From the NCBI GenBank assembly GCA_965238225.1, contig OZ250183.1, forward strand, positions 32,001 through 96,000: a stretch of 64,000 bases of DNA, written 5' to 3'. This document shows, piece by piece, positions 11,216 through 32,300 of the stretch. How positions within the stretch are numbered: position 1 is the stretch's first letter; each line of letters starts with the position of its first letter. Below the pieces are notes generated by a model. It was not told the DNA's origin, did no database searches, and worked only from the letters and a program-made list of their open reading frames with translations. The DNA is from Gammaproteobacteria bacterium. Its GTDB lineage: Bacteria; Pseudomonadota; Gammaproteobacteria; Eutrophobiales; Eutrophobiaceae. The position numbers and the translations under genes are program-made.

Positions 11216-11416
11216 ATGAAAACTGAAATACATCCCGCATACGAAGAAATTGATGTCAAATGTAACTGTGGCAATACATTTAAAACTAAATCTACATTAA
11301 AAGATGCGCTGCATCTTGATGTCTGCTCAGAATGCCATCCATTCTATACTGGCAAACAAAAAATGCTTGATACATCTGGTCGCGTTGATAAATTCAACAA
11401 AAAATATGGGATGTGA
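11216..11416 (+). CDS. rpmE: 50S ribosomal protein L31 (Zn-binding type)
   Basis: [30 protein letters not shown]. Confidence 0.97.
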
Positions 11417-11481: not shown

Positions 11482-11672
11482 CTTCGCTTTTATCTATATT
11501 TCTTAATCGATCAAACTAAAAACATAGTCTTGCGGTCTTAGCTCATCCCATGAACTTGTATAAATTATTGCAAGTCATATTTGAAAAAATATTATCAAAT
11601 AAATCCTGCAAAAACTACCGATTCCAGCTAGGAAAAACTGAAGTTAGCTGATTTTCTTAAGCTAATTTATAA

Positions 11673-11927
11673 CTTTTCACAGATAAACTATTGCTGCGAT
11701 TAACAATCAAATATTATCCACAATTTCTGTGGGTAACTCTGTGGATGATACGAGTGTAGTGTGCTCAAAATGGCTTAAATATTACCTTTGTAACAAATCT
11801 GTTATTTTTTAACCGATTTAAATATTATTATTAATATCAATTAGTTACAATAAAATTGTAGCGCATAGCTATTTTTTATTGGCTGAATCAATAAGAAGAG
11901 CGCAATTGACGCAGGCGTTGTGCATAA
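11673..11927. promoter_or_regulatory. DnaA-box cluster with Fis and IHF sites (DARS-like; oriC or datA are alternatives)
   Basis: TTATCCACA 11714-22, TGTGGGTAA 11728-36, TGTGGATGA 11740-48, CTTTTCACA 11673-81, TGTGCATAA 11919-27; Fis-like 11800-14; IHF consensus TATCAATTAGTTA 11835-47. Confidence 0.75.
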
Positions 11928-12014: not shown

Positions 12015-12611
12015 TTATGCGTAACCAAACCACCTGTCAAGCACTGTCCTTGCCTCCTCTGCGCCTGTCTTTTTCAAGGCTGAAAATAGCTGAATCGACA
12101 CTAGATCATCAGCAATACGCTCTTTAAGCGTGTGTAATAAAGACATCCCTGCGCCACGAGATAATTTATCTGATTTATTCAGTAAAATGTGTGTAGGCAA
12201 ACGGCAATCAAGCGACCAGTCAAACATCTGCTGATCCTCAGGTTTAAATGGATGCCGAATATCCATGATCAAAATCAGACCTGATAATGCATTTCTTTCC
12301 TGAAAATACCTATTCAGTGTTATCCCCCAATGCTTGCGCATGGCGACAGAAACTCTTGCATAGCCATATCCTGGTAGATCAACTAGGCAGCGCTCATCAT
12401 CTAGAACAAAGACGTTCATCTGCTGGGTTCGTCCAGGTGTCTTGCTGATACGCGCCAGCTGCGAATTTTCTGTAATCACATTCAGTACGCTGGATTTGCC
12501 GGCATTAGACCTCCCGGCAATCGCAACCTCAGTACTTATACCCTCAGGTAATTGCCTGACTTCATGTGCCCCCACAAGGAATGTGCTTTTGTTATAGTTG
12601 TTTTTTGACAA
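12015..12611 (-). CDS. engB: Ribosome biogenesis GTPase EngB/YihA
   Basis: GRSNAGKSS, SKTPGRT, DLPGYGYA, NKSDKL. Confidence 0.96.
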   Translation of the reverse strand: MSKNNYNKSTFLVGAHEVRQLPEGISTEVAIAGRSNAGKSSVLNVITENSQLARISKTPGRTQQMNVFVLDDERCLVDLPGYGYARVSVAMRKHWGITLNRYFQERNALSGLILIMDIRHPFKPEDQQMFDWSLDCRLPTHILLNKSDKLSRGAGMSLLHTLKERIADDLVSIQLFSALKKTGAEEARTVLDRWFGYA

Positions 12612-29349: not shown

Positions 29350-32300
29350 ATGTCACAATACGCATTATTAGACTTAGCCTACGACCGAGAAACCTATCTT
29401 GATTTTTTAGCGAATAGATTCAATTTTCAAAAACTACTTAAACCCATTCCAATAGAAAATAACGAGGTTGAGCATTTCTATCAATTAGGCACAGTAACCA
29501 CTGACGATGACAAAAGCCTGCTAGTTTTTGAAATTGATATTAAACCCAATACCCAACTCGCCAGAAACCGTGTGCAACTGCGTGATATGGTTGCCAAACG
29601 AATCCAAAGAGAAGACGGGGCTTTAGCGGTTTATGTGGATGCAGAAAATGAACAATGGCGATTTAGTTTTATTGCTATTGAATATCGGCTTGACGAGAAC
29701 GGGGTTAAAGAAGATCAAACCGCCAGCAAACGCTTTACTTATCTTTTAGGCGAAGGTGCACAAACTAGAACTGCAAAAGCTAGATTTAAGGAAATTAGCA
29801 AACAATCTAGCCTAGTGGACTTAAAAACCGCTTTTGCCGTTGAGCCTTTAAGCAAAGAGTTTTATAACAAATTGTATCAATGGTATAAAGAAGCCCAAGA
29901 ACAAGTCGTTTTCCCTAATGACGCAAATGCACAAAATCACATCCAAACCAGTTTAATTTGCCTGCTCACTCGGCTTTTATTCGTTTGGTTTTTAAAAGAG
30001 AAAAATCTCATCAACAAAGATTTATTTGATTTAGAACAATTAAAAACTCTGATTGATTATGAAAAAGACAATAGTTTTTACAAAGCCATTCTGCAAAACC
30101 TATTTTTTGCTACCTTAAGCAAAGAAATTGATAAACGCGATTTTAGAAACAAAAGAACCTTTCAAGGAAAAAACAAGCATTATGGCGATCAATATCATTA
30201 CCGTTATCACGATTTGGTAAAAGATCAAGAAAAGTGGCAACAGTGTTTTAGTCAAACCCCGTTTTTAAACGGTGGATTATTTGAGTGTTTAGACAGAGAA
30301 GCGACAGAGAAAGATAAAACCATTCGCATAGAAGAAAAAATGATAAGGATGGATGGTTTTTCAGAACACAAACGCAATCCGCTGAAATTAGCAAATTTAC
30401 TATTTTTTAATAACGATAAAAATAAGTTAGGCTTGATTGATTTATTCAAGCAATACCAATTCACGGTAGAAGAATCCACCCCGATGGATATAGAAGTCGC
30501 CCTTGACCCAGAATTATTGGGCAAGGTATTTGAGAATCTGCTGGCAAGTTACAACCCAGAAACAGGCGGGCAAGCCCAAGCCACCGGCAGTTTTTACACA
30601 CCCCGCCCGATTGTTGAATATATGGTGGATGAAAGCCTGAAGCAATACTTCAAACAACACACGGATTTAGACGAAAGCCAAATAAACGACCTGTTTATCG
30701 AGGGTGAAAATACACTGAATGAAAAACAAATAAAAACCGTTATTAATGCCATTGATCAGTTAAAAATCTTAGACCCTGCGGTGGGGAGTGGGGCATACCC
30801 GATGGGTATCTTACAAAGGCTGGTGTTTATCTTAGACAAAATAGACCCAGATAATGCCCATTTTAAACAACAACAATTAGCTAAAACTAAGCAAATGGAT
30901 GAGATGAGTAAAAAGGCTTCTATTGATGCCATAGAACAAGTTTTCTCACAAGCCAACCAACACAATGCCTATGGCAAAAAACTATTTTTGATTGAAAACT
31001 GCATTTATGGCGTGGATATTCAAGCTATTGCCATTTTAATTGCTCAACTGCGTTTTTTTATCAGCCTGACCATTGAGCAAGACAATAACACCGATGCAGA
31101 AGATAATTTTGGTATTCAACCATTGCCAAACTTGGATTATCATTTTAAAGTTGGCAATTCTTTAATTGGCTTCCCCATCAATACTTCAACTGGCTTACCC
31201 ATCGATTACTCCTCTAATAAGAAACTGAAAAATTTATTAGCTGAAATCAAGCCACTCAAACATCAGTTTTTCTCAGAAAACGACCACCGCAAAAAAGACA
31301 AACTCAGAAAAGAAATAAACAGCAAAATAAAACAATGCTATCAAGAGATGGAGAAAGGTATTAGTTATTCAGTTGATTTTGATTTTAAAATTGATTTTAG
31401 TGAGATTTTTGATAATAAAAACAATACAGACGGCTTTGATATTGTAATAGGCAACCCGCCTTATATCAGGCAAGAATCTATCAAAGAATTTAAGCCACAA
31501 TTCAAAAAAATACGTTATAACATTTTTACTGGCACAGCTGATATTTACACTTACTTTTATGAAAAAGGATTTAATTTATTGAGTGAAAGCGGGCATTTAT
31601 GCTACATCACCTCTAATAAATGGATGCGAGCAAAGTATGGCGAAAAACTGCGCGGTTTTTTCAAACACCAAACCCAATTAAAACAAATTATTGACTTTGA
31701 AGGCGAGACAAATTTTTGAAAATGCCACCGTTGATACCAATATTTTACTTTGTGGTAAGTGGCAAAATAGCAAAATAGATAAAAAAACAGATTTTAATTA
31801 TCAAAAACAACTACCCAACAAACAAAACCCATTATTTACCATGGCAATTAGTGATTTATCAGACAATGCCTATACCTTAGCACCACCAAATATTTTAGCC
31901 CTAAAAAAGAAAATTGAAGCAATCGGCACAGCCCTTAAAGACTGGGATATAAATATAAATTATGGAATAAAAACAGGCTTTAATGAAGCCTTTATTATTG
32001 ATAGTGCCAAGCGAGACGAGCTAATAAAAGCCGACGCAAAAAATGCCGAAATTATCAAACCGATTTTACGCGGTAGGGATATTAAGGCGTATGAGCATCA
32101 TTGGGCGGGATTGTGGATTATTGCTAAGTTTTAACAATAAACATCAACAATTATCCAGCCTGTAAAAAATATTAACTTTTGATGAGCGTTTAAAACCCCG
32201 CTACTAAGATGGCACAAATTCAGAGCAGGTAATAATTATCCAAGACCAAATAGGCTATCAAAGACGCCAAGACAAAGATTGTATTACGCCTTATAATTTA

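Follow-up and report, generated by a model that had tools for sequence, protein, structure and literature searches.

The gap between the convergent genes rpmE and engB carries an ordered set of DnaA boxes with an IHF site and is probably a DARS-type non-coding control module for DnaA. We place the probability of this reading at roughly 0.55, the function being assigned from likeness to the two DARS elements of Escherichia coli. By the same analogy, we infer a nucleotide-exchange activity.

The window analyzed here is a 64,000-nucleotide stretch, positions 32,001 to 96,000 of a single 1,722,049-bp contig (40% G+C). Within it, 598 bp separate the stop of rpmE (11416) from the stop of engB (12015), in agreement with the original prediction of a 600-bp gene-free gap between convergent genes. 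Since rpmE and engB converge, a promoter is not needed in the gap. The engB orthologues of relatives match NCBIfam TIGR03598 (E values of 1e-64 to 1e-70). The same genome encodes a PQQ methanol/ethanol dehydrogenase (653.7 bits), and no match to RuBisCO was found in it. Searches for IcmL and for AMO/pMMO gave no match either, in this genome or in any of the control genomes. The gap and its flanks contain the following features.

11216..11416, plus strand: rpmE (ribosomal protein L31), left flank, reading towards the module; Pfam Ribosomal_L31, E = 6.2e-34
11640..11712, no strand: leader block, conserved within the genus (genus alignment, 11 sequences)
11714..11722, plus strand: DnaA box I, TTATCCACA; matches the consensus without mismatch and is invariant in 19 of 20 loci
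11723-27: gap of 5 bp between boxes I and II, ATTTC
11728..11736, minus strand: DnaA box II, TGTGGGTAA; one mismatch, head to head with box I across 5 bp
11737-39: gap of 3 bp between boxes II and III, CTC
11740..11748, minus strand: DnaA box III, TGTGGATGA; one mismatch, oriented as box II
11766..11818, no strand: conserved AT-rich block, CAAAATGGCTTAA ... TTATTTTTTAACCGATT, between the core and the IHF site (genus alignment)
11835..11847, plus strand: IHF consensus site, TATCAATTAGTTA, an exact match to WATCAANNNNTTR; +121 from the start of box I
11919..11927, minus strand: DnaA box IV (distal), TGTGCATAA; +205 from the start of box I, oriented as boxes II and III
12015..12611, minus strand: engB (yihA/ysxC GTPase), right flank, reading towards the module; Pfam MMR_HSR1

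We favor the DARS reading because the geometry of the core is identical to that of E. coli DARS1 and DARS2, because the triad formed by boxes I to III is unique in the genome and unexpected by chance, and because the module lies off the skew switch of the chromosome. The reading is also favored because the gap lies between convergent genes and shows no Rfam family and no RNA covariation, because the triad is deeply conserved with reversed controls at 0, and because both accessory sites, IHF (+121) and box IV (about +205), recur in other families among other neighbors. Finally, Hda, Fis, IHF-alpha, and IHF-beta are encoded, E. coli DARS2 has a similar layout (IHF-like site at +109, box at +211), and the host DnaA, 62% identical to E. 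coli DnaA, keeps Leu290, Phe239, Lys243, and Arg285; each of these points to the same conclusion. Counted against it are the alanine at the Gln208 position of DnaA, the lack of a Fis consensus, and the variable distance to dnaA. A DARS-like element had been the original prediction for this site; its spacers, its off-origin position, and its conservation held up, whereas its Fis site and one of its two outlying boxes are unsupported.

The triad occupies positions 11714 to 11748, where the predicted order of box, ATTTC, box, CTC, box can be read directly from the sequence, and a consensus scan recovered the predicted IHF match exactly. Counting the IHF site (+121) and box IV (+205), the extended module measures about 215 bp; box IV lies about 82 bp beyond the center of the IHF site. 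In most relatives, box II is a perfect TGTGGATAA. Two outlying DnaA boxes had also been proposed. The downstream one is box IV and is conserved, whereas the upstream one at 11673-81 (CTTTTCACA) has two mismatches to TTATCCACA and reads TTTTCCTAG or similar in congeners, so that the genus alignment does not keep it as a box. Directly ahead of box I, the leader block contains a palindrome resembling ATTGCT-N6-AGCAAT (about 11690-11708). The leader block also includes an inverted repeat at 11640-11668, where RNAalifold drew a helix (alignment columns 6-33) without compensatory changes; this repeat is possibly the terminator of the upstream gene.

A Fis-like 15-mer had been proposed at 11800-14 (TGTTATTTTTTAACC). 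This sequence is a misfit to the Fis consensus GnnYAnnnnTRnnC as quoted in excerpts of PMC11724364, and no match to that consensus was found anywhere in the rpmE-engB gap. The 15-mer sits within the conserved AT-rich block, for which a class-level consensus of cAAAt..Gt.AAaatTTAAcCaaTt was derived at +80 to +104 from 17 non-redundant modules among the matches listed. A Fis frame of the form G(+86)...C(+100) is present in 8 of these 17 related modules and absent from the rpmE-engB module.

The module was also examined as a possible RNA gene, and this candidate was rejected. RNAalifold was run on the genus sequences except L009, L010, and L012 (8 of 11) and returned a covariation term of -0.26, with compensatory changes in 2 of 46 pairs; its main helix consists of the opposed boxes I and II. 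The best Rfam match, IS128, was likewise rejected (E = 0.4; its 18 bits fall short of the gathering score, 80).

DnaA boxes were counted across the genome, which has 21 perfect boxes and 655 with one mismatch or better. Four boxes at no more than one mismatch fall within 500 bp only at the rpmE-engB site; the runners-up among 500-bp stretches have three. When the triad scan was relaxed to 2+2+3 mismatches in the three boxes, the rpmE-engB triad was the single site found in the 1.72-Mb genome, and none was found in 10 Markov-2 simulated genomes. A control using the reversed triad pattern gave 0 matches in 81 family genomes and 0 in 121 class genomes. The triad is more than a chance arrangement. 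The exact IHF consensus occurs 210 times in the genome, with 0.17 matches expected in an AT-rich tile of 600 bp, and is by itself weak evidence; the weight of the IHF site comes from its conservation and not from the match itself.

The original prediction had proposed a search for the same spaced triad in relatives, and conservation of the spacing was found at the level of genus, family, and class alike. All 10 same-genus genomes keep a block of 200 to 330 bp at 77 to 83% identity, and the triad core extends beyond the genus to further genera and families of the class. In the genus alignment of 11 sequences, the leader, the triad, the 50-bp AT-rich block, the IHF site, and box IV form conserved islands with variable DNA between them. 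The IHF site is exact in 8 of the 11 sequences, its consensus positions being kept and its four N positions varying, and box IV is kept in 10 of them. A wider set of 19 loci from the genus, family, and class takes in loci flanked by Nif3/MiaE genes or by priA. Here the IHF consensus is found at +121/+122 in 9 loci, and a TGTGNATAA box is found at +203 to +208 in 17.

With one mismatch allowed, the triad is present in 71 of the 81 sampled family genomes, representing 31 of 34 genera, mostly once per genome. At the level of the class, sampled with one genome per family, 80 of 121 genomes contain 1 to 7 copies; if two genomes flagged as unpublished are subtracted, the count is 79 of 119. That the element belongs to a lineage far from the enterobacteria, as had been pointed out, is therefore true and yet not special, since the triad is class-wide. 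A triad pattern scan limited to one genome per species yielded at least 120 loci. Among the matches listed, nearly all are in Gamma- or Betaproteobacteria, and the carriers include Pseudomonas, Legionella, Lysobacterales, Woeseiaceae, Nitrosomonas, Rhodocyclaceae, and enterobacteria, the enterobacterial match being the uvrB-linked DARS1. The rpmE-engB module is one ordinary member of a large, little-described family.

The positions of the accessory sites were analyzed for the 116 triads with enough flank among the matches listed. In this set, exact plus-strand IHF matches had their sole positional peak in the bin from +120 to +129 (20 matches), and 23 loci had an exact IHF match within +112 to +130. 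Boxes oriented as box II peaked at +190 to +209 (70 matches), with 54 loci having such a box at +196 to +215 and, among the matches listed, the mode of the distal box offsets falling at +203 to +206. Both the IHF site and the distal box were present under strict rules in 13 of the 116 loci.

The genes that surround the module differ between lineages. Both rpmE and engB flank it in the host genome, in one further genome (G016), and in one MAG, and a gene for an M48 BepA-like protease together with engB flanks it in most family members whose flanks were read (L004, L012-L019). In many other gammaproteobacteria, the triad lies beside rpmE, priA, or hemW; its neighbor is fklB in Pseudomonas, xseA in Rhodocyclaceae, and uvrB in enterobacteria. 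The spacing of the IHF site (+121) and box IV (about +205) recurs across families in which the neighbors have changed.

The E. coli cores were located by their structural pattern in the K-12 spacers bioD-uvrB and rppH-mutH. When the 81-bp core region was compared by blastn with all complete E. coli genomes, no chromosomal match and three weak plasmid matches (E = 0.6) were obtained. The two cores read as follows.

NC_000913.3 813,107-813,141, bioD-uvrB spacer: E. coli DARS1 core, TTATCCACT / ATTCC / TGTGGATAA / CCA / TGTGTATTA
NC_000913.3 2,969,135-2,969,169, rppH/ygdT-mutH spacer: E. coli DARS2 core, TTATTCACC / TTTTC / TGTGGATAG / AGT / TGTGAAGAA

DARS1, DARS2, and the rpmE-engB triad share the same box orientations and the same 5-nt and 3-nt gaps. 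The 5- and 3-nt spacers of DARS1 and the opposed first two boxes of DARS cores, both given in the original prediction, are thus confirmed in the K-12 sequences of both DARS1 and DARS2. Excerpts of PMC6868365 state the 5-bp gap between DARS boxes I and II and describe the box spacing as highly conserved in DARS1, DARS2, and predicted candidates of various species. The same excerpts give DARS1 a perfect box II and DARS2 a box II with one mismatch (PMC6868365), in accord with the K-12 sequences. The flanking genes differ, being rpmE and engB here, rppH and mutH at DARS2, and bioD and uvrB at DARS1, and the module shares synteny with neither element.

The likeness to DARS2 extends beyond the core, since both modules have an IHF site about 110 to 120 bp and a further DnaA box about 205 to 211 bp downstream. 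In E. coli DARS2, the site at +109 is IHF-like, differing from the consensus by one mismatch, and the box at +211 is perfect. Activation of DARS2 requires the Fis sites FBS2-3 and IHF. Excerpts of PMC11724364 place a PciI site next to the DARS2 IHF site, and the IHF-like site at +109 was found beside PciI. Strict regular expressions for IHF and Fis found nothing in E. coli DARS1 and DARS2 themselves, and a strict consensus is therefore a poor test for IHF and Fis sites; a scan allowing up to 2 IHF mismatches recovered the one-mismatch DARS2 site. The two modules also differ in several respects. The distal box of DARS2, TTATCCACA, runs in the direction opposite to that of box IV, TGTGCATAA, the IHF site is at +109 in E. 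coli and at +121 here, and the rpmE-engB gap lacks a Fis consensus. In addition, the core boxes have 0, 1, and 1 mismatches here, whereas each DARS2 box has one mismatch to the relaxed TTATNCACA, and the partner DnaA here is without Gln208.

The module resembles DARS1 in that boxes I and II are near consensus in both and in that the uvrB-linked copy of Kosakonia and Klebsiella has an exact IHF consensus within +112 to +130. In K-12 DARS1, by contrast, the IHF-like sequence at +121 has two mismatches, and a box-like sequence lies at +223, compared with +205 here. DARS1 is reported to require no protein factor (excerpts of PMC4585315 and PMC11724364).

The genome encodes the partners on which a DARS element could draw. 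Hda matched TIGR03420 with 256.2 bits (cut-off, 194.8), Fis matched NF001659 with 100.2 bits (cut-off, 99), IHF-alpha matched TIGR00987 with 159.3 bits (cut-off, 120.25), and IHF-beta matched NF001222 with 154.4 bits (cut-off, 115). Since Hda, and with it RIDA, is encoded, ADP-DnaA would be available as a substrate for reactivation. In the alignment of the host DnaA with E. coli DnaA, Leu290 is an invariant column, and alanine occupies the position of E. coli Gln208. Excerpts of PMC6868365 describe Leu290 as essential for E. coli DARS1 and DARS2, the L290A protein being inactive, and Gln208 as a residue of the head-to-head interface that is needed for full ADP release in E. coli. In those experiments, the Q208A protein released about 40% of ADP with DARS1, compared with about 90% for the wild type, was moderately impaired with DARS2, and abolished the toxicity of multicopy DARS2 (PMC6868365, excerpts).

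Position 208 was then compared across 32 DnaA proteins of the class, taken from the best 30 genomes of the class search (the host genome included) and two congeners. Alanine is found in 23, glutamine in 3, glycine in 3, serine in 2, and valine in 1. The triad is present in 29 of these 32 genomes and Gln208 in 3; therefore, the triad is kept without Gln208. The natural alanine at this position weakens, though not decisively, the case for a putative exchange of the E. coli type.

The following mechanism is proposed for a DARS-type module of this layout. ADP-DnaA arising from Hda-dependent hydrolysis would bind boxes I to III, and the head-to-head DnaA pair on boxes I and II would distort the nucleotide pocket, releasing ADP. 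The resulting apo-DnaA would rebind ATP and feed the next initiation. IHF would bend the DNA at +121 such that box IV folds back just past box III, and DnaA on box IV may act as a fourth protomer that stabilizes or activates the complex, akin to IHF (with Fis) at DARS2. Because the element is away from the origin, the copy number of the module, and hence its output, would rise only once the fork has passed.

The position of the module on the chromosome was compared with the cumulative GC skew, a check that the original prediction had proposed. The cumulative skew falls from 1 to 150 kb and is flat to 230 kb. Its lowest value is at 282,474, after an earlier minimum at 250 kb; from about 310 kb, the curve rises to a maximum at 1,030,422. 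The module lies at genome position 43,714, where the skew is -0.09 in the 10 kb to the left and -0.079 in the 10 kb to the right. The switch does not map to the module, and the DARS reading is not refuted. The gene dnaA (248,705-250,033) lies 206 kb from the module at the skew minimum (250-310 kb), with dnaN downstream and rpmH-rnpA-yidD-yidC upstream. The 180-bp spacer between dnaA and dnaN contains five relaxed DnaA boxes at 78% AT, and congeners G004 and G005 have three and four boxes, respectively, in the first 200 bp of this spacer at 75 to 77% AT. This spacer is the best predicted candidate for the origin.

The two congeners, both complete, likewise lack an origin-type switch at the module. 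In G005, skew computed in 20-kb tiles stays below zero between 950 and 1,130 kb and is positive from dnaA (1,138 kb) on, and the module lies at 990 kb, inside the negative run. In G004, a local inverted block at 1,550-1,630 kb has negative skew, and the module (1,533 kb) lies where the skew passes from plus to minus at the edge of this block. The coarse skew profile of G004 has an origin-type switch around 950-1,100 kb, with the terminus placed near 150 kb. The gene engB does not adjoin the module in G004, which fits a rearrangement breakpoint. The rpmE-engB module is not oriC.

The distance between the module and dnaA was measured in five complete genomes and is 206 kb in the host (G000), 335 kb in G004, 148 kb in G005, 42 kb in G016, and 679 kb in G021; a match in G020 (33 nt, 85% identity) was omitted because it failed the one-mismatch triad scan. 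The distance is not conserved among these five genomes, which argues against position-dependent timing of the E. coli kind.

This variable position also counts in favor of a rival explanation, in which the module would be a DnaA/IHF platform that does not exchange nucleotides, serving for high-affinity titration or storage or as some other docking site, with the triad recruited for ADP release in the E. coli lineage only. Strong DnaA binding is expected of a site with a perfect box I and single mismatches in boxes II and III, and Gln208, which E. coli needs for full DARS activity, is missing in most triad-bearing lineages. Titration, however, needs no strict 5- and 3-bp spacing, no head-to-head pair, and no fixed IHF site or fourth box, all of which are conserved, and four boxes are few beside the 655 near-consensus boxes of the genome. 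Conservation of Leu290, essential for E. coli DARS, also speaks against a platform of this kind, as does the ADP release that the Q208A protein retains in vitro (about 40%, excerpts of PMC6868365). We regard this explanation as unlikely.

A datA-like titration site had been offered as an alternative in the original prediction; as a datA-like element, the module would form an IHF-bent DnaA complex that stimulates hydrolysis of DnaA-bound ATP and thereby inactivates the initiator. Like datA, the module is a non-coding cluster of several DnaA boxes outside oriC with one IHF site and, further out, a box that looks essential, and a TTTTTTAAC-type tract occurs both in the module and in the IHF region of datA. 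The known activity of datA is the opposite of that of DARS, namely ATP hydrolysis. K-12 datA consists of separated boxes in the same direction that enclose the IHF site, along with a pair spaced by 3 bp. Its box order and spacing differ from those of the module, the arrangement of datA boxes 2, 3, and 7 is not matched by the module, and no DARS triad was found in the K-12 datA sequence, whereas the triad is the hallmark common to both DARS elements. These differences make a datA-like function improbable.

Transcriptional roles are more improbable again, whether as a DnaA-controlled promoter or operator or as a roadblock that ends two converging transcripts. Many other lineages do have the triad about 100 bp upstream of rpmE or adjoining the start of priA, and E. 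coli DARS1 precedes uvrB. Here, by contrast, the triad is downstream of rpmE, and the module is downstream of both flanking genes, as it is in the relatives whose flanks were read. A promoter scan found 3 sites in 1.7 kb, compared with 7.0 ± 2.8 expected, and none between 11600 and 12600, and the internal spacing of the module remains constant while its neighbors change. The least probable explanation, a chromosomal origin unlinked from dnaA, which had also been named as an alternative, could draw on the densest strict DnaA-box cluster of the genome and on a 77.7% AT stretch (11780-11900) and an IHF site beside the boxes, but it is contradicted by negative skew on both sides of the module, by origin-type switches located elsewhere in G005 and G004, by the better candidate that the dnaA-dnaN spacer provides in all three congeners (3 to 5 boxes at 75 to 78% AT), by the presence of one GATC only in the gap, by the location of the module far from dnaA in Pseudomonas antarctica (at 3.68 Mb of 6.08 Mb), and by the identity of the enterobacterial module as DARS1.

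To our knowledge, DARS elements have been studied in E. coli only. Among the papers searched, none joins DARS1, rpmE, and DnaA, and a single one uses "DARS-like" along with DnaA; a prior listing is possible in the candidate list of Fujimitsu 2009. In excerpts of Kasho 2014, Miyoshi 2021 (including the Figure 8 legend), and Fournes 2018, the DARS homologues shown are confined to species close to E. coli, as far as Vibrio and Shewanella. As a tentative proposal, the four-box module, in which the DARS core is followed by IHF at +121 and by box IV near +205, could be the ancestral class-wide DARS of Gamma- and Betaproteobacteria, often tied to rpmE or priA, and DARS1 and DARS2 could be relocated, derived copies of it. 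With Ala208 in most hosts, either exchange would proceed through a head-to-head interface unlike the one modeled for E. coli, or the triad would originally have served a purpose other than nucleotide exchange.

For the annotation of such genomes, these data serve as a caution that the origin of a genome may lie elsewhere than in its densest cluster of DnaA boxes. The natural alanine at position 208 of DnaA offers a direct test of the published head-to-head model. With a single-copy module and with Hda, Fis, and IHF in a small genome, the organism would provide a simple system in which to ask whether reactivation of ADP-DnaA is general in proteobacteria and what the conserved IHF site and the fourth box contribute.

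The DARS-type module in the rpmE/engB gap was compared with E. coli DARS1, which recharges DnaA, and with E. coli datA, which promotes DnaA-ATP hydrolysis. All three share a TTTTTTAAC tract with (C/T)N(A/G)TT after it, in datA within the IHF region; its distance from the boxes differs among them. Just upstream of box I lies a genus-conserved palindrome, and 17 related modules show a looser motif, taA..T.tTG, between −30 and −20.

Motifs around the DnaA boxes
Window 11690–11708: ATTGCT-N6-AGCAAT-like palindrome
Window 11803–11819: TTTTTTAAC tract with (C/T)N(A/G)TT
L023 (E. coli K-12 DARS1) ~1721–1737: the same tract and motif
L223 (E. coli K-12 datA) ~1803–1822: the same tract and motif

In the uvrB-linked DARS1 loci of Kosakonia (L030) and Klebsiella (L104), the IHF consensus is matched exactly between +112 and +130 from the start of box I, whereas the IHF-like sequence at +121 in E. 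coli K-12 DARS1 carries two mismatches. Passages of two papers describe E. coli DARS1 as requiring no protein factor (PMC4585315, PMC11724364).

Among the matches listed, the box triad occupies the priA-rpmE or hemW-rpmE spacer in many gammaproteobacteria, ~100 bp upstream of rpmE (L026, L033, L038, L039, L049, L052, L053, L054 and others). In the genome studied here, rpmE is oriented towards the module, opposite to those loci, as though rpmE had been inverted. The sole actinobacterium-labelled match among those listed, L044 (Candidatus Planktophila lacus), has its triad adjoining hemW and an L31 gene with 65% identity to the L31 of our genome; the contig looks proteobacterial and mis-binned.

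An Alcaligenaceae MAG (L099, 2001–2628) holds three triads in direct order at ~300-bp spacing (2001, 2304 and 2599), and the module is therefore tandemly triplicated there. Within the class sample, one genome (G136) has seven triad copies and another (G118) has three inside 340 bp. When the 81-bp core region was searched against complete E. coli genomes by blastn, matches were obtained on three plasmids only (E 0.6), with 81–90% identity across 30–42 nt. These may be plasmid-borne DARS-like box pairs.

Plasmid matches, in unannotated DNA
NZ_CP021538.1 61360–61401
NZ_AP025664.1 2347–2376
NZ_AP025659.1 2347–2376

In the complete congener G004, engB does not adjoin the module, and a block of inverted GC skew of at least 80 kb begins immediately beside it (C1, ~1,530–1,630 kb; L157–L161). 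This block is probably an inversion with its breakpoint at the module.

A candidate oriC was located outside the window:
Genome 248,522–248,701 (L001, the dnaA region, 793–972): 180-bp dnaA-dnaN spacer

This spacer has an AT content of 78%, contains five relaxed DnaA boxes and coincides with the first GC-skew minimum of the genome. The first 200 bp of the corresponding spacers in the congeners hold three DnaA boxes (G004) and four (G005). Within the genus, the dnaA-dnaN spacer is the strongest candidate for oriC.
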